Source of the DNA: Sphingorhabdus sp.
Lineage (GTDB): Bacteria; Pseudomonadota; Alphaproteobacteria; Sphingomonadales; Sphingomonadaceae
Direction of reading: 5' to 3'
Assembly (NCBI GenBank): GCA_036479555.1
Contig: JAZGFP010000002.1
Span: 286,802 to 350,801, forward strand
DNA length: 64,000 nt
The notes beneath the pieces are model-generated. The model was not told where the DNA came from. It saw nothing but the letters and a program-made list of their open reading frames with translations, and did no database searches. The stretch's first letter is position 1. Every line of letters starts with the position of its first letter. A program made the translations under genes and the position numbers. Shown here in pieces: positions 828 through 8,547 of this stretch.

Positions 828-916
828 GGGAGTTCCTTATGTGAAGAGAATCTTGTTTTTGTTAGTTCCCCGCCTGTTAGCGGATATCGCCGGGAGGAGC
901 AATAAGGGGGAGTGTT

Positions 917-942
917 CGGGGACATGCTGTTGCGTGTCCCCG
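917..942. repeat. Short REP-like hairpin CGGGGACA-N10-TGTCCCCG at left border of AT-rich island
   Basis: 8-bp perfect inverted repeat read directly. Confidence 0.5.
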
Positions 943-1087
943 TGGCGCGGCAGTCAGTTGAATTAAGGGGCAAAGTAAACAGTCACCGCAGTTTCGTAAT
1001 TGCTTAGCAGTTTTCAGTTTATGATACGCGTGAATTGAACTAGGTATCTAGATCATATAAATTGGTCACGTTAGGAGCGAATTTTCC

Positions 1088-1828
1088 ATGTCAACTATCA
1101 GCACAATAGAATGGACGGATGCTACGTGGAATCCAGTAACGGGATGTACAAAAATAAGCCGAGGCTGCGACAATTGCTACGCTGAAACGTTCTCTGAAAG
1201 ATTCAGGGGAGTGGAGGGGCATCACTTCAATTCTGGCTTTGATTTAACACTTCGAGCGGAGCGGCTGGAGCAACCACTTAAATGGAAGTTGCCTAAAATA
1301 ATATTTGTCAATTCGATGAGTGATCTCTTCCACAAGGACATTCCCACTGAGTTTATCGATAGCGTTTTTGATACCATGGAAAAAGCTCACTGGCACATTT
1401 TCCAATTACTGACCAAAAGAAGTTCATTGATGAAGAAATATATTAACAACAGATACGCGAGCAACCCTTGCCCAAATAACATATGGATTGGTGTTTCTGT
1501 TGAAGATTCTCCTGCAAAGAGTAGAATTAAACATCTACAAGATGCCAATATTTCTACGCGGTTTTTATCTATTGAGCCGCTGATTGCAGATGTCGGAGAA
1601 TTACAGTTGAATGATATCAATTGGGTGATTGTCGGAGGTGAAAGTGGAAATCAGGCACGACCCATGAACCCAAAGTGGGCAATCGGTGTAAGAGACCAAT
1701 GTATGGCAAGCGGAGTGGCATTTTTCTTCAAGCAGTGGGGTAGGTTTGGGCAGGATGGTATCGCAAGAAGCAAGAAAGCCAATGGTCGAGAACTATTTGG
1801 TGAAGTTTACGATGGGATGCCAATTTGA
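1088..1828 (+). CDS. DUF5131 (phage Gp37/Gp68-like) protein with radical-SAM-like Cx6Cx2C motif
   Basis: IEWTDATWNPVTGCTKISRGCDNCYA, IFVNSMSDLFH, FQLLTKR, WVIVGGESG, FFFKQWG motifs. Confidence 0.93.
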   Translation: MSTISTIEWTDATWNPVTGCTKISRGCDNCYAETFSERFRGVEGHHFNSGFDLTLRAERLEQPLKWKLPKIIFVNSMSDLFHKDIPTEFIDSVFDTMEKAHWHIFQLLTKRSSLMKKYINNRYASNPCPNNIWIGVSVEDSPAKSRIKHLQDANISTRFLSIEPLIADVGELQLNDINWVIVGGESGNQARPMNPKWAIGVRDQCMASGVAFFFKQWGRFGQDGIARSKKANGRELFGEVYDGMPI

Positions 1829-3081
1829 CAAACCCTCCACCGACGAATTTTCTGTGGGAAGGTGAATTGCCTGAACGAATGATCCACAGTTCAATTAAGC
1901 ATGACCTTATAAGGCAATATATTCGCGACTACATTGCTATACTAACCAATGTTCCAAAACGAAGTAAGCTGCGGCTCACACTGTTTGACGGATTTGCCGG
2001 AGGCGGGGTTTTCTCGGAAAACGGTCTAATTGTTCCTGGAACATCGCTAATTCTCGGAGAAGAGATAATGCGAGCCAAGGCTGAATTTGGAGATGCGCGC
2101 AACATCGAGTTTGATATTGATCTTTGGGCGGTTGAAAGAAATAAGACGAATTATGAGCAGCTAAAGCACACCGTTGAGAATTCCGAATTCTACAACAATT
2201 TTCCGGGCAGAGTTCATCTTAGAAATTGCAGTTATGAAGAAGCGCTCAGAGAATCTATCGAAAGGATGCTAAAGGTACGCAATACCACTGGCCGTTCGAT
2301 TTTTTTGCTCGATCAAACAGGATTTGGACAGGTTGATTTCGATCATGTTAAATCAATTTTTGAGCAACTGAAATCACCTGAAGTTATCATGACAATGTCT
2401 GTAAGTTGGTTGGTCGACATTGCTGGAAACAACCCTACTTTTCTCAAAAAAGTTGCTTCACTTGGTATTGATAAAAACGAACTTCGTGAATTGTTGGAAT
2501 CCAAGCGAAGTCAAGCAAGCCGATATGGCGGTCAGAAGTGGGTCAGAAAATATATCACACAGCATATCGGAGCCGCATACAACACCTGCTTTTTCTTGAA
2601 ATCTCGACCTTCCAATAAGGATATTTGGCTGTTGCATTTCGCTAATAATTGGCGTGCGCGTGATGCGATGATGGAAGTCCATTATAAATTTGCAAATAAA
2701 ACACACTTTTATGGCAAGGCTGGGTTCGAAATGCTTGGATTCGATGTAAATTCTAATGTAGATCAAGTTGAAATGTTTAATTTTACCAAAACAGATGGAG
2801 AAAATTCAAGCATTGCTATGCTTGAGGACATTCCCCGGTCGCTGATAGATCGCGGAGGAGCAAACGGAATTTCATTAGGGGATCTGTTCGACCGTGAGTT
2901 GAACGATGCAACAACCACTCTTCGGCAATTTGAATTGGGCGCTGTTTTGGCAAGGGGTAACAAGGTTTTGGAAATTTTGACAGCTGATGGGAGGACTCGC
3001 CCTCATGCCAAATGGCTCCGCCGCGATGATGTTTTGAGAATACCTGATCAAAAAAGCCTTTGGACAAATTTTGCCCGATAG
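1825..3081 (+). CDS. tcmP: Three-Cys-motif partner protein TcmP family (SAM-dependent methyltransferase-like fold, probable C-terminal winged helix)
   Basis: HSxIKHxLIxxY N-terminus, LFDGFAGGG motif-I-like loop, FLLDQTGF; 4-nt TTGA overlap with DUF5131, its usual partner. Confidence 0.85.
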   Translation: MTNPPPTNFLWEGELPERMIHSSIKHDLIRQYIRDYIAILTNVPKRSKLRLTLFDGFAGGGVFSENGLIVPGTSLILGEEIMRAKAEFGDARNIEFDIDLWAVERNKTNYEQLKHTVENSEFYNNFPGRVHLRNCSYEEALRESIERMLKVRNTTGRSIFLLDQTGFGQVDFDHVKSIFEQLKSPEVIMTMSVSWLVDIAGNNPTFLKKVASLGIDKNELRELLESKRSQASRYGGQKWVRKYITQHIGAAYNTCFFLKSRPSNKDIWLLHFANNWRARDAMMEVHYKFANKTHFYGKAGFEMLGFDVNSNVDQVEMFNFTKTDGENSSIAMLEDIPRSLIDRGGANGISLGDLFDRELNDATTTLRQFELGAVLARGNKVLEILTADGRTRPHAKWLRRDDVLRIPDQKSLWTNFAR

Positions 3082-3763
3082 AAAGAATTCGATAACCCCT
3101 CTGATAAGAAACAGCGCCGACGCTCTGTTAAAAAAATTCGGTGAGGGAAACGCGACTCCCGGTTCAGGCAGTGCCGCCGCCTTTATGGGGTTGCTGTCTT
3201 GTAGTATGATTTTGGCGGTTGTCCGTAAATCAAAAACAAAATCAGTCAAAATATCAGAGAGTCGCCTCGACTTTATCGAAGAGAGAACGATCAAAGCCGA
3301 CTTGAGGCTGAAGGACTTGTTTCAAAAAGATTCAGATGAATTTGAAGAGGTTGTTCGACTACGGCGAGAAAGGGAAGAAGCAAAAAACGAACAGCAAGCA
3401 AGACTACTCCAACGAAGAGCTATCGACCGATTGGAAGAAACCAATAAGATAATATTTGAAATTGCCGAAACATGCTTGGAATTGGTTGATTACGCGACTG
3501 AACTTTTTGAAGTTGGCTGGCCTCACGTGAGAGGCGATTCAGGAGCCGGAATCAGTTCCGCTATTTCGGGTGCCATGTCGTGTATTTTCGTTGCTAACCT
3601 TAATCTAAAAAAATTCGAACGGCGGCTAAGTGCGGCAGGATATGCCGAAAAAATAGAGGGACTAACAAACAAGATATCTGCTTCTCATGATAAAGCACTT
3701 TCTTGCATTTCCCAACTATCTAGCGAAGCCGACGTAAGCCCGACCTTTTTTGACAACCGATGA
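3071..3763 (+). CDS. Cyclodeaminase/cyclohydrolase family (FTCD C-terminal domain-like) protein
   Basis: ATPGSGSAAA (family PGGGSxxA), LFQKDSDEF, GDSGAG...ANLNL; all-helical; TTG start overlaps tcmP stop by 11 nt (start uncertain). Confidence 0.8.
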   Translation: MPDRKNSITPLIRNSADALLKKFGEGNATPGSGSAAAFMGLLSCSMILAVVRKSKTKSVKISESRLDFIEERTIKADLRLKDLFQKDSDEFEEVVRLRREREEAKNEQQARLLQRRAIDRLEETNKIIFEIAETCLELVDYATELFEVGWPHVRGDSGAGISSAISGAMSCIFVANLNLKKFERRLSAAGYAEKIEGLTNKISASHDKALSCISQLSSEADVSPTFFDNR

Positions 3764-4093
3764 TGCGCTTCCCAATATCAGGATTACGGTGACAGGTGCA
3801 ATAACCCCTAAACCCCCGCTGTCCTACACGTCCTCATCCAATCACCCCCCTTGCAATGTAGGATATCGCCTGCAACAATCCTTGTTGACATCGGTAACCC
3901 GCTGACGGGCAGCAGCAGCCTTTCTGCCCGTATCCTCGCCGGAGAGCGCCTCACCGCCAGACGCACGCTCACTGGCCCGCAACATTCTTGCGCTTTCGCA
4001 ATATACCGCAATAGGCGTCACTCCTGTCACCCCGGTGTCTCCTTGGTGTAACCTTCCCTTGCCTTGCCGGGCAGAATTGCGGTGCCAGCTTAC

Positions 4094-4167
4094 CTCGTCT
4101 CCGCTCGAGGCGAACGGGAGAGGTTGCGCGCGCATCATTCATACTTCGCCCTTCGTCAAGCTCAGGG
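4094..4167. repeat. Remnants of two alphaproteobacterial REP families (CTCGTCTCCGCTCGAGGCGAACGG; CCCTTCGTCAAGCTCAGGG)
   Basis: Second motif matches the TTCGACAGGCTCAG arm at 46978-46991; partner arms are missing. Confidence 0.4.
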
Positions 4168-4267
4168 CCCGATGCGCAGGTGGATGATGCGCTCGCCGAG
4201 CAGGGGCTTTGTGCGCGCAGCATCGCGCTTTGTCCTTCGCTCTTTGACCGGCGCATGGCCTCAACCC

Positions 4268-4460
4268 GATTTATCTGTCAGGGTTGGCAGAGGCCAACCG
4301 CGACACCAGCCCGCACCCCCGCCCGAACCACCCATGACATTATACTGAATTGGGTGGTTCGGGCGGGGGTGCGGGCTGGTGCTGCACCAAAAAGGCGCTT
4401 CGAGCGCTTTTGCAAATAGATCGCCGAGGTTGGCCGGGGGCCAATCCTGACAGACAAATC
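4268..4460. repeat. Nested palindromic element: perfect 31-bp inner inverted repeat (4304-4381) inside an imperfect ~32-bp outer inverted repeat
   Basis: Inner arms ACCAGCCCGCACCCCCGCCCGAACCACCCA and exact reverse complement; outer arms 4268-4299 and 4428-4460. Confidence 0.85.
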
Positions 4461-4480
4461 ACCTCGATCTTTACCCGCTG

Positions 4481-4488
4481 TTAACCAT
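4481..4488 (+). promoter_or_regulatory. TTAACCAT motif (CtrA-type half site) upstream of DUF11-like gene
   Basis: Exact 8-mer about 67 nt upstream of ATG 4555; CtrA binding is inference. Confidence 0.4.
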
Positions 4489-4554
4489 CTTTGGGCGATA
4501 GCTGTTGATGCGATCCTTTTATGGTCACGAATAATGATAAGGGAAGCAAGGATT

Positions 4555-5160: not shown

Positions 5161-5172
5161 GGTTGGGTATTA

Positions 5173-5346
5173 TTTGTCAGAATTTGCTAGCGCAAATCGC
5201 GGCGATTCATTTGTCAGACCCGACCTTCGTCGGACGCGGCACCAGCCCGCTCCCCCACCCGAACCACCCAATCAGTATAATGTCACGGGTGGTTCGGGTG
5301 GTGGAGAGGGCCGGTGCCGCGATTTGCGAAAGCAAATTCTGACAAA
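5173..5346. repeat. Second nested palindromic element (inner 5241-5315; outer 31-bp inverted repeat 5173-5203 / 5316-5346)
   Basis: Same inner family as 4304-4381 in inverted orientation (loops are near reverse complements); outer arms differ at 2 of 31 positions. Confidence 0.85.
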
Positions 5347-5466
5347 CAAAAAAACCCTGCCGCGATTTGAGAAAGTGAATTCACGTAAACAACCCCCCAC
5401 GCGCACCCATTTTGTTAACGCTTCATGCCGCAGCCTGTCCCGCGCTGACACAGGCGGAGCGGCGTT

Positions 5467-6448: not shown

Positions 6449-7006
6449 ATGAAGAAACTGATTGCAACCGCGCTGTTTGGCGCAACAATGCTGACGGCAG
6501 CTACATCTGCCTCTGCTACCACATATATCTACAAACAGAATAACGGCGCGGTATTGACGCTTGATACAGCCAACAACCGTGGCACGCTGATCGGGCGCGA
6601 CATTAATGTCAGCTTTACCAGCAGCGATCTTGCCAATTTCACCGGCGGCGCGAAGCCGAGCGGTTCATTCACGCTCGATAACCTTGATGGATACCGCAAG
6701 ATCCGCGGTCGCCGCTATTATGACAATCCGTCGCATACGCAAAAGCTGATCATCTCAGACAATGGCCGCACCAACCTGTGGTCTCACTGGGGTACGACCC
6801 CGCGCTATGGCGACTATATCACTTATGTGCGCAAATATTATCCGCCCACAACCGGAAGTTCGGGCGGATCCACGAGCACCGGCGGCAGCACGGGCGGCGG
6901 ATCAACCGGCGGCACTGATGTTCCGGCACCCGGCATGCTCGCACTCTTCGGCCTTGGCGCAGGCGCACTAGCCTTCCGCCGCCGCCGGAACAAGAAAAAC
7001 GCATAA
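6449..7006 (+). CDS. PEP-CTERM (VPAP variant) sorting-domain surface protein
   Basis: Signal peptide MKKLIATALFG..., Gly/Ser/Thr linker, C-terminal VPAPGMLALFGLGAGALAFRRRR. Confidence 0.9.
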   Translation: MKKLIATALFGATMLTAATSASATTYIYKQNNGAVLTLDTANNRGTLIGRDINVSFTSSDLANFTGGAKPSGSFTLDNLDGYRKIRGRRYYDNPSHTQKLIISDNGRTNLWSHWGTTPRYGDYITYVRKYYPPTTGSSGGSTSTGGSTGGGSTGGTDVPAPGMLALFGLGAGALAFRRRRNKKNA

Positions 7007-7078
7007 GCCAGAAGTTTGACGGCCCTTCGAGGACCAGTATGTTTCGTTGGGGCCTTTACCGAAAGCCCCAAATAACTG

Positions 7079-7120
7079 AGCGCAGGAGACCAGCAATGGT
7101 TTCCTGCGCTTTTGTTTTTT
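7079..7120 (+). terminator. Rho-independent terminator after PEP-CTERM gene
   Basis: AGCGCAGGAGACC-agcaat-GGTTTCCTGCGCT followed by TTTGTTTTTT. Confidence 0.8.
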
Positions 7121-7229
7121 GTGAGGCGGAGAGGGTTTTCGGGCAGCGATATACCGACAGGTGTTTTTGGGTGTGATTGTCACTGAAGCTAAGAACGATT
7201 GCTGGGAAATGGCGCGCCATGCTCCAAAA

Positions 7230-7502
7230 TCAAACCTCCACACCCCGCACTAAAATCCGGTAGTCCTGCATCGGGATGCATAGCTGCGCTTCACTACCTT
7301 CGCCGCTTCTACCTCCCTCGCGGGCATAGTGGGCGTCGATCATGCGGCGTAGGCGGCCCATCTGGACGCGGGGGTAGCTGTCCAGTTGAGGATCGAAGTC
7401 GCAGGGCTTTCCAAGTGCTTCAACCGCGATTGTGTAGGATTTCAAGTGAAAGGGGCTGCCTGACATGCGGTGATCGACGGAGGTAATTTTTCCGGGTTTC
7501 AT
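7230..7502 (-). CDS. Cassette 1 gene E: stand-alone 90-aa homologue of the N-terminal (putative winged-helix) domain of the 17342-19045 receptor
   Basis: KSYTIAVEALGKPCDFDPQLDSYPRVQMGRLRRM is 23/34 identical to the receptor segment; ATG overlaps the JAB stop (ATGA). Confidence 0.7.
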   Translation of the reverse strand: MKPGKITSVDHRMSGSPFHLKSYTIAVEALGKPCDFDPQLDSYPRVQMGRLRRMIDAHYAREGGRSGEGSEAQLCIPMQDYRILVRGVEV

Positions 7503-8206
7503 AACGTTGCTCCTTTCTCTTGGCTGCGTGCAAACAGGCCCTCGCAACTGCGGCGCAGGCTGTTGCTGCCCCCACGTCCGACAATGATGTGATCGAGCAG
7601 CGCTATACCCATCAGGCTTGCAGCCGCGGCGATTTCTCTAGTCAGCCTCAAGTCTTCGTGGCTCGGCTGTGTGTCGCCTGATGGATGATTGTGGACCAGG
7701 ATCAGCGCGGAAGCATTTTCAGCGAGCGCATGGCGGATGATTTCGCGCGGATGGGCCTGCACCTTGTCAACGGTGCCCCGCCACAGCGTGTGATCGGCTA
7801 GGAGGTGGTTGGCGCTATCGAGGAAAAATACGCGGAATGTTTCAATCTCTAGGCCCGCCATATCAAGCTGCAGATAGGGGAATAGATCGTCAGGTGCGGC
7901 GATAACGTTGCCACCGGCGAGGCGATGCTGAGTGCCCGAGATAATGGTGTTGACCAAATATCGCAAGCGCGCGCCAATGCGCTGCGATGTGCCAAGGTTT
8001 TCGCCGCCGGTCGTTAACACTTTGGCAAATATGTGATCGAGCGAACCATGGCGCGCGATCATTTGCCGACTGGTGGACAATGCGCCGGCGCCGGCCGGGC
8101 CGGCAAGAAGGTCTGTGAGGACGGCTAGGTCGGTGTCTCGGCCTTGCTGCGCTGCACATGCCGATATGTCGCGATCAGCAGCATCAGCATCTGCGGATAA
8201 GACCAT
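7499..8206 (-). CDS. Cassette 1 gene D: RadC-like JAB/MPN-domain protein
   Basis: IETFRVFFLD, HPREII, LILVHNHPSGDTQPSHED, LDHIIVG; start inferred at ATG 8206. Confidence 0.88.
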   Translation of the reverse strand: MVLSADADAADRDISACAAQQGRDTDLAVLTDLLAGPAGAGALSTSRQMIARHGSLDHIFAKVLTTGGENLGTSQRIGARLRYLVNTIISGTQHRLAGGNVIAAPDDLFPYLQLDMAGLEIETFRVFFLDSANHLLADHTLWRGTVDKVQAHPREIIRHALAENASALILVHNHPSGDTQPSHEDLRLTREIAAAASLMGIALLDHIIVGRGGSNSLRRSCEGLFARSQEKGATL

Positions 8207-8547
8207 ATGCCCTGCATCACGCCGAGCGCGTAGGATTGGAGATTGTCGCCGAAATAGGCCACGAAATGCGCGCCTAGGGCGATGAGCTGGGTTGCGGCGA
8301 TGGGTAGAGGCCAAAATCGTTCACTCCGGAAGGCAATCCAGAGGAAGATCGCTGTGACCACCATCTCGTTGATTGCCAGTAATGGGCTGGGTTCAAGCCA
8401 GTTTCGGCCAGTTTCCCAGTAGATTATTGCGGTAGTGAAGCTGCCAAGATACAAGGTTATCATCACGATTTTCTGTGAGCGGCTTCCCCAGATGAGGATA
8501 GCAATCAAGCAGACTGAAGACAGAATATCGTAAATTGTACCGATCAT
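8125..8547 (-). CDS. Cassette 1 gene C: small 4-5-TM membrane protein
   Basis: Hydrophobic segments; SERFW, Q..H, W..P, ATYRH shared with 16277-16720; GGGGA SD before ATG 8547. Confidence 0.8.
   Translation of the reverse strand: MIGTIYDILSSVCLIAILIWGSRSQKIVMITLYLGSFTTAIIYWETGRNWLEPSPLLAINEMVVTAIFLWIAFRSERFWPLPIAATQLIALGAHFVAYFGDNLQSYALGVMQGIWSYPQMLMLLIATYRHVQRSKAETPT

Follow-up and report, generated by a model that had tools for sequence, protein, structure and literature searches.

In a 64,000-nucleotide stretch of DNA from Sphingorhabdus sp. (GenBank assembly GCA_036479555.1, contig JAZGFP010000002.1, forward-strand positions 286,802 to 350,801; referred to in the following as the window), the common DUF5131-TcmP gene pair is extended by a third, tightly coupled gene that encodes a protein of the FTCD_C fold (3071–3763, + strand). 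This trio is a rare variant of the pair, and its additional protein belongs to a large, unannotated branch of the FTCD_C fold that is found in defense islands and on mobile elements, apart from hut or one-carbon operons. The normal setting of the family is in hut or folate clusters, where it acts in formiminotetrahydrofolate and methenyl-tetrahydrofolate (methenyl-THF) metabolism. For the third protein of the window, we favor, at a probability of roughly 40%, the role of an accessory subunit that binds a folate-type ligand and serves as a sensor or regulator of DUF5131-TcmP.

The gene begins with a TTG codon and encodes 230 amino acids. Ahead of the conserved N-terminal helix, no ATG or GTG is available, and the start agrees with the equivalent position in homologues. 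As the stop codon of tcmP occupies positions 3079–3081, the two genes overlap by 11 nt. The protein reaches 78.9 bits with the Pfam family FTCD_C (PF04961; cut-off 24.5, E 5e-22) over profile positions 3–179 of 182; the one other Pfam match is weak (E 0.018) and lies below the cut-off of that family, and none of the PADLOC models recognizes the protein. An AlphaFold2 (AF2) model built on 42 homologues consists of six helices with a predicted local distance difference test score (pLDDT) of 91. Foldseek retrieved with this model only two significant matches from the PDB, namely FchA (7VG4; E 7e-8, template modeling (TM) score 0.76–0.86) and TM1560 (1O5H; TM score 0.74–0.85), and superposition on both structures gave TM scores of 0.71–0.86. 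Since a profile of the homologues likewise led to FchA (7VG4, E 4e-28) and rat FTCD (E 2e-12) among the PDB sequences, the protein is a genuine member of the FTCD_C fold, on which hidden Markov model, fold and core residues agree. Its glycine-rich loop PGSGSAAA (3158–3181, residues 30–37) is the counterpart of PGGG(G/S)AAA in the canonical enzymes. A preliminary description, made from the letters and their open reading frames (ORFs), had pointed to this motif, a helical architecture, the overlap with the tcmP stop and an AT-rich composition, all of which are confirmed by the ORF, Pfam, AF2 and GC data. Its proposal that a stand-alone FTCD_C-family protein is coupled to DUF5131/TcmP instead of folate or histidine-utilization genes also holds, given the Pfam score, the overlap and the lack of any hut or folate gene in the cassette neighborhood, which comprises DUF5131, TcmP and an aconitase. 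The gene is the only PF04961 member in the source genome.

Beyond the shared fold, the protein stands well apart from the metabolic enzymes. On NF045657, the equivalog model for FchA methenyl-THF cyclohydrolases, it scores 48.2 bits against a cut-off of 275, and seven canonical FchA genes from 401 sampled genomes of the phylum attain ~230 bits on the Pfam model, compared to 79 here. When 1.84 billion cluster representatives were searched exhaustively with profiles, 4,487 FTCD_C-type matches emerged, 240 of them at E ≤1e-30 to a profile of the protein's relatives; clustered at 50% identity, the clade of the window's protein comprises no fewer than 240 clusters. The phylogeny of 243 domain sequences, calculated with FastTree only, places 234 rows apart from FchA and rat FTCD, with a long branch of support 100 between them. 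Hence, the protein does not group with ordinary metabolic FchA/FTCD enzymes; such a grouping would have spoken against the preliminary description. The clade and nine canonical sequences have P30, G31, G33, A35–37, D87, F91, G149, D156 and N178 in common, whereas S32, S34, R98, R154 and G155 are near-invariant in the clade and replaced by G, G, Y/I, I/L and S, respectively, in the enzymes. Two of these positions fall into an RGD triplet (3530–3538, residues 154–156), in which D156 is common to the canonical enzymes and R154 is specific to the clade. A paper giving active-site residues of FchA or FTCD was not found in the searchable literature.

The clade is diverse in its architectures, which were counted over the 147 best cluster representatives. 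A C-terminal ImmA/IrrE tail (Peptidase_M78 with HExxH motif) is present in 75 of these and 65 are stand-alone FTCD_C proteins, while two carry an N-terminal dihydrofolate reductase (DHFR) and a few possess other tails; the ~160-residue C-terminal tails of two members (P0048 and P0080) have no match in Pfam or the PDB. The protein of the window is of the stand-alone type, as no peptidase-family match and thus no Peptidase_M78 domain with HExxH was found in its 230 residues. The ORFs read around the cassette, only part of which were scanned, show no obvious M78 or Xre gene. R98 and R154 are conserved in at least 92% of the clade, in fused and stand-alone forms alike, and the polar pocket residues are retained across all architectures, a pattern that speaks for a common ligand or substrate and against a purely structural role. 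Fusions to DHFR arose at two places in the tree (L039, P0064 and P0090). In L039 (6448–8645, genome G421), thyA is followed by the DHFR::FTCD_C gene with a 4-nt overlap, and the fusion contains the only DHFR detected in the 3.8-Mb genome. These fusions are the sole direct genomic tie of the clade to folate chemistry, with L039 being the only one of 49 related loci with an adjacent folate gene. One of the FTCD_C::M78 fusion genes (L045) adjoins the S-subunit gene of a type I restriction-modification system, with Lamassu-type genes farther off. With regard to a phage origin, neither a tblastn match among 50,697 phage records nor a fold match in BFVD was obtained. Taken together, the FTCD_C fold has a large defense-island and mobile-element branch outside of its metabolic settings, with genomic context being known for a minority of its members.

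Within this clade, the window's protein falls into a subclade of nine rows (support 98). All subclade members with known context are encoded directly after a TcmP of ~418 amino acids and DUF5131, in the same order; the genes overlap or are separated by no more than 9 nt. In total, eight such trio loci were found, i. e. the window, P0002, P0003, P0004 and L001 (Allosphingosinicella), P0005, P0006, and the metagenomic L119. The protein of P0002 is 71% identical to that of the window and is also encoded beside an aconitase gene. The TcmPs of the trios form one clade (support 100) at the end of a very long branch (2.25), their DUF5131 proteins form one as well (support 92), and the branching orders of both trees match that of the FTCD_C tree. 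These matching clades and branching orders indicate that the three genes travelled and diverged as a unit. The third gene is present in eight of the nine loci of the TcmP subclade, so that a two-gene composition does not describe it; this count rests on few and partly related loci, as a metagenome scan with the TcmP of the trio gave three loci. Beyond the subclade, TcmP scores above the cut-off in 27 of the 401 sampled genomes. The third gene had been described in advance as a component not usual for the pair, and accordingly none of the 26 other sampled TcmP loci carries an FTCD_C-like frame in its 1.5-kb flanks.

A looser association with DUF5131 recurs in other lineages. In seven of 49 species-representative loci, DUF5131 is encoded within 8 kb of a clade member, compared to a random expectation of ~0.01 for the 49 loci, which was derived from the 6.7% of genomes with the pair, multiplied by the share of a 16.7-kb interval in a ~4-Mb genome. 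This expectation is an order of magnitude only, since related genomes are not independent, and gene calls in the fetched loci followed a simple longest-ORF heuristic. The gene orders differ among these loci. In Collimonas (L018, 1340–8687), DUF5131, TcmP, a short TcmP, PDC-M65A, PDC-M65B and FTCD_C follow each other on one strand, while the order is FTCD_C, DUF5131 and short TcmP in L029. Cupriavidus (L012) has divergent neighbors, L021 contains one small gene between FTCD_C and TcmP, and the linked genes lie 5–6 kb apart in L023 and L038. In Cellvibrio japonicus (L102/L103, 3695–9508), the series DUF5131, TcmP, a TcmP paralogue, FTCD_C and HEPN_Cthe2314 is succeeded by an AbiH gene in the opposite orientation. 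In the sole plasmid match, from Burkholderia (NZ_CP117779; L116, 1436–7717), an integrase, TcmP, Gp37/Gp68 and TcmP are encoded 2.4 kb upstream of the FTCD_C-like gene and in the same orientation. The clusters of Cellvibrio, L018 and L116 are extended DUF5131 clusters with two TcmP paralogues (a long one and a short or divergent one), further unannotated genes and the FTCD_C-like gene at the end; the extra genes of the L018, L021 and Cellvibrio clusters are mostly without a Pfam match. Overall, the DUF5131-linked cases are spread over the FTCD_C tree in six or more well-separated places. With the trio in eight loci and this looser linkage in addition, the association is thus not unique to the source genome, a restriction that the preliminary description had named as counting against it.

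How might such a protein contribute to the cassette? The DUF5131-TcmP pair is plausibly a module that modifies or repairs nucleic acids. DUF5131 is placed in radical-SAM megacluster 5-2, next to 5-3 with spore photoproduct lyase (RadicalSAM.org, PMC9477430), and no sequence relative of it was found in the PDB. The pair itself has been listed as the phage-defense candidates PDC-M30/M41 of PADLOC, which are untested (Payne et al. 2024, bioRxiv 10.1101/2024.01.29.577857). As a plausible scenario, the FTCD_C-like protein would retain the pocket for folate-type ligands that its enzyme ancestors possessed and would act as a dedicated, translationally coupled third subunit beside DUF5131, a radical-SAM-type iron-sulfur enzyme, and TcmP with its methyltransferase fold. 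Through its ligand, it could then tie the activity of DUF5131-TcmP to the folate/thymidylate pool, whose state is disturbed in phage takeover or DNA damage, and the FTCD_C domain of the ImmA/IrrE-fused relatives may work likewise. A sensor or regulator is suggested because the gene is co-inherited and coupled here but dispensable in most pairs, and because the domain is peptidase-fused in half of its relatives and lies beside unrelated immune systems. The close spacing of stand-alone members with such systems (short prokaryotic Argonaute (pAgo) with TIR-APAZ, a PIN-like gene, and LmuB of Lamassu) was counted in the same direction. In particular, the frequent ImmA/IrrE fusion favors a sensor or regulator over the supply of a one-carbon folate donor, the first role that the preliminary description had considered, beside action on a modified nucleotide and a repurposed effector or immunity subunit. 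Folate-type ligand binding, a complex with TcmP, a regulatory instead of a catalytic role, and a function of the cassette in defense are what we infer from these patterns.

Several observations weigh against a sensor or regulator of this kind. The FTCD_C-like protein itself lacks a DNA-binding or effector domain. In locus L120, whose TcmP belongs to the same subclade (52% identical), the tcmP stop runs straight into high-GC DNA and no third gene follows. The third gene is hence accessory, and either dispensable or added later. Its absence from the flanks of the other sampled TcmP loci further means that the core chemistry of the pair does not need it. The conserved Asp, Asn and Arg residues fit catalysis as well as binding, and the DHFR fusions speak for an enzyme or cofactor function no less than for a sensor. 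Finally, the varied neighbors of the clade could mean that the protein is merely an autonomous resident of defense islands.

The main rival is a catalytic cofactor role, which we regard as possible but doubtful. Here, the protein would be an active folate one-carbon enzyme of the cyclohydrolase/cyclodeaminase type or related, which supplies, recycles or hands over one-carbon species for base modification or repair by the divergent DUF5131-TcmP. All residues shared by FchA and FTCD are retained and the fold is close to FchA, while the DHFR fusions and the neighboring thyA place the clade in folate chemistry. Moreover, the long branch of the trio TcmPs would fit an altered chemistry upon joining of the third gene. 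In addition, radical-SAM methylases of class D use methylene-folates. These class D enzymes are listed in the RadicalSAM.org publication (PMC9477430). However, TcmP retains the S-adenosylmethionine (SAM)-type motif LFDGFAGGG, and more than 95% of the sampled pairs do without the third gene. The pAgo, Lamassu and PIN systems that clade members adjoin, as well as the regulatory peptidase to which they are fused, do not need a folate supply either. In addition, the FchA equivalog score is far under its cut-off and clade-specific arginines replace two canonical positions. A ligand-binding sensor or regulator remains preferred over a catalytic role.

A further alternative takes up the diversity of neighbors. 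According to this explanation, which appears unlikely, the gene would be self-sufficient, as a single-gene defense system or an effector that converts a metabolite, and would frequently come to lie beside other systems, having become fixed downstream of tcmP in this lineage without joint function. Indeed, 42 of the 49 clade loci with known context are not next to DUF5131, and their neighbors within two genes are very diverse, many of them being known or candidate defense genes: LmuB of Lamassu, mad3 and mad8 of MADS, AriA of PARIS, PDC-M11 and PDC-M19, alongside HATPase_c_3 proteins, a GNAT-PIN-EVE protein, a HIRAN protein and integrases. Short pAgo with TIR-APAZ occurs in three of these loci; in L019, 16 nt separate FTCD_C from the pAgo gene upstream of it, and in L046, FTCD_C precedes a REase-TIR-APAZ gene by 28 nt. 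In P0011, the FTCD_C-like gene starts 1 nt after a PIN-like gene in an integrase-bearing islet. The gene also stands alone in five Sphingomonadales loci (L011, L015, L022, L033 and L034), where it lies in synteny between a P63C-domain gene and a UvrA paralogue of ~1000 amino acids, both on the opposite strand; this subclade looks vertically inherited rather than island-borne. The pair of L120 that exists without the third gene points in the same direction. On the other hand, the start of the gene overlaps or nearly touches the tcmP stop in eight of eight trios, and the three gene trees are congruent. Furthermore, six or more separate parts of the FTCD_C tree show a linkage to DUF5131, in varying gene orders and far above a defense-island background. 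These features are better accounted for by the coupled accessory subunit.

Regarding the three SPARTA-type adjacencies, their coordinates are 5056–8732 in L019, 5053–8732 in L028 and 7980–12126 in L046, with gaps of 16 to 28 nt. One Aliiglaciecola genome holds two pAgo-adjacent FTCD_C copies, and the FTCD_C frame is split in two in L046 and L048.

An ordinary metabolic FchA or formimino-THF cyclodeaminase that lies beside the pair by chance, as the Pfam assignment and the source annotations of homologues as cyclodeaminase/cyclohydrolase might suggest, is essentially excluded and was rejected on phylogeny, score, composition and context, i. e. the separate clade, the low FchA equivalog and Pfam scores, the foreign composition, the absence from 20 relatives, and the lack of hut or one-carbon neighbors.

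If the accessory subunit is instead extended to the whole clade, FTCD_C-like domains could be widespread immunity sensors of the folate/thymidylate state that switch on DUF5131-TcmP, short pAgo/TIR-APAZ, Lamassu or a fused ImmA/IrrE-type protease. In the cassette of the window, this sensor would then have been permanently incorporated into a machine of radical-SAM and methyltransferase-fold proteins. In this breadth, the proposal is speculative and improbable as it stands.

The first two genes of the cassette support its assignment to the DUF5131-TcmP type. The DUF5131 gene (1088–1828, + strand) encodes a protein of 246 amino acids of the phage Gp37/Gp68, three-Cys type within the radical-SAM superfamily, which matches PF07505 (E 1.2e-98) and PDC-M30B/M41B of PADLOC (E 1e-101 to 7e-103) and contains a Cx8Cx2C motif. 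It overlaps by 4 nt with the gene for TcmP, the three-Cys-motif partner (1825–3081, + strand; 418 amino acids), which scores 139.7 bits on TIGR04474 (cut-off 53) and matches PDC-M30A (E 8.7e-21). The AF2 model of TcmP (pLDDT 76) corresponds to SAM methyltransferases with a class I fold and a C-terminal extension, and the LFDGFAGGG motif is intact.

The 2.7-kb three-gene cassette is horizontally acquired. Its GC contents are 42.8% for DUF5131, 42.5% for TcmP and 44.4% for the FTCD_C-like gene, with 39–42% at third codon positions (GC3), compared to 58% and a GC3 of 62–68% in the flanking genes. In terms of DNA, 20 relatives, 12 of them from the same genus, match the region in its aconitase part only. 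In a congener (genome G403; L113, G403:C11:14000-21000), the slot flanked by acnA and the orf4534 homologue, which corresponds to positions 828–4533 of the window, holds a gene for a GGDEF-EAL-PilZ protein of 748 amino acids instead of the cassette. This slot therefore varies within the genus. Between the cassettes of the window and the P0002 contig, identity amounts to 72.9%, and to 80.8% for the adjoining acnA. The left junction (828–1087, GC 46.9%), located between the acnA start and the DUF5131 start, is the presumed promoter region; it gave no alignment with the related cassette locus L050. An alphaproteobacterial LexA box (GTTC-N7-GTTC, at most one mismatch) is absent from 828–1087, the nearest match at 865–879 being at chance level (27 found, 36 expected). 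Neither a tRNA, an integrase nor flanking direct repeats were found at the islet borders.

Some further features of the surroundings deserve mention. In L050, the closest related cassette locus, a Fic gene and a small upstream partner (6935–7797) follow right after the trio on the opposite strand, whereas the window has neither of them at this place. Just to the right of the cassette, palindromic repeats of ~150 bp are found at 4269–4452 and 5169–5350, including a perfect inverted repeat of 31 nt at 4304–4381. More than 15 copies of these repeats are distributed over several contigs of the source genome; they occur also in congeners and resemble repetitive extragenic palindromic (REP) elements or miniature inverted-repeat transposable elements (MITEs). 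Farther downstream, an ORF on the minus strand (7499–8314) encodes the HNHPSG(D/E) JAB/MPN motif typical of RadC-family proteins.

With respect to earlier work, the searchable literature contains no report that links FTCD_C-like proteins, including the M78-fused and restriction-modification-linked ones, to defense islands or DUF5131-TcmP, and a modularity-network preprint makes no mention of such an association. DUF5131 was found there only in a table of RadicalSAM.org (PMC9477430), while GMT-wHTH, PF22560, PF07505 and TIGR04474 gave no result and the TcmP and PDC names appear merely in passing, in gene tables and listings of defense systems. Judged by this literature, the three-gene form of the DUF5131-TcmP candidate system and the sizeable, mis-annotated defense-island branch of a metabolic fold are new. 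As DUF5131-TcmP is among the commonest gene pairs without known chemistry, a third subunit from a folate family provides a concrete biochemical handle. Moreover, the peptidase and DHFR fusions of the clade point to a possible link of one-carbon/thymidylate metabolism with immunity or DNA-damage responses, for which neither the searchable literature nor PADLOC offered a precedent. On a practical level, the current annotation of the clade as "cyclodeaminase/cyclohydrolase family protein" misleads metabolic reconstruction.

Compared with known systems, the FTCD_C-like protein shares PF04961, the six-helix fold, the glycine-rich loop and D87, F91, D156 and N178 with FchA of Methylobacterium extorquens (7VG4), TM1560 (1O5H) and the cyclodeaminase domain of rat FTCD (1TT9/2PFD). 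However, it is only ~20% identical to these enzymes, belongs to a separate clade beyond the branch with support 100, remains below the FchA equivalog cut-off, and is encoded in a foreign cassette instead of a hut or one-carbon operon. Closer relatives are the FTCD_C::ImmA/IrrE (Peptidase_M78) fusions, which stem from the same clade, display the same conserved pocket residues and occur in island settings, whereas the protein of the window has no peptidase domain. The DHFR::FTCD_C fusions are likewise from the same clade, but the domain is joined to DHFR and, in the locus described above, resides in a thyA operon and not in a DUF5131-TcmP cassette. The nearest match to the cassette as a whole is offered by PDC-M30 and PDC-M41 of PADLOC: its first two genes strongly match both models and it sits in a foreign islet as is usual for the pair, yet it adds a conserved third gene, and its TcmP and DUF5131 form subclades of their own.

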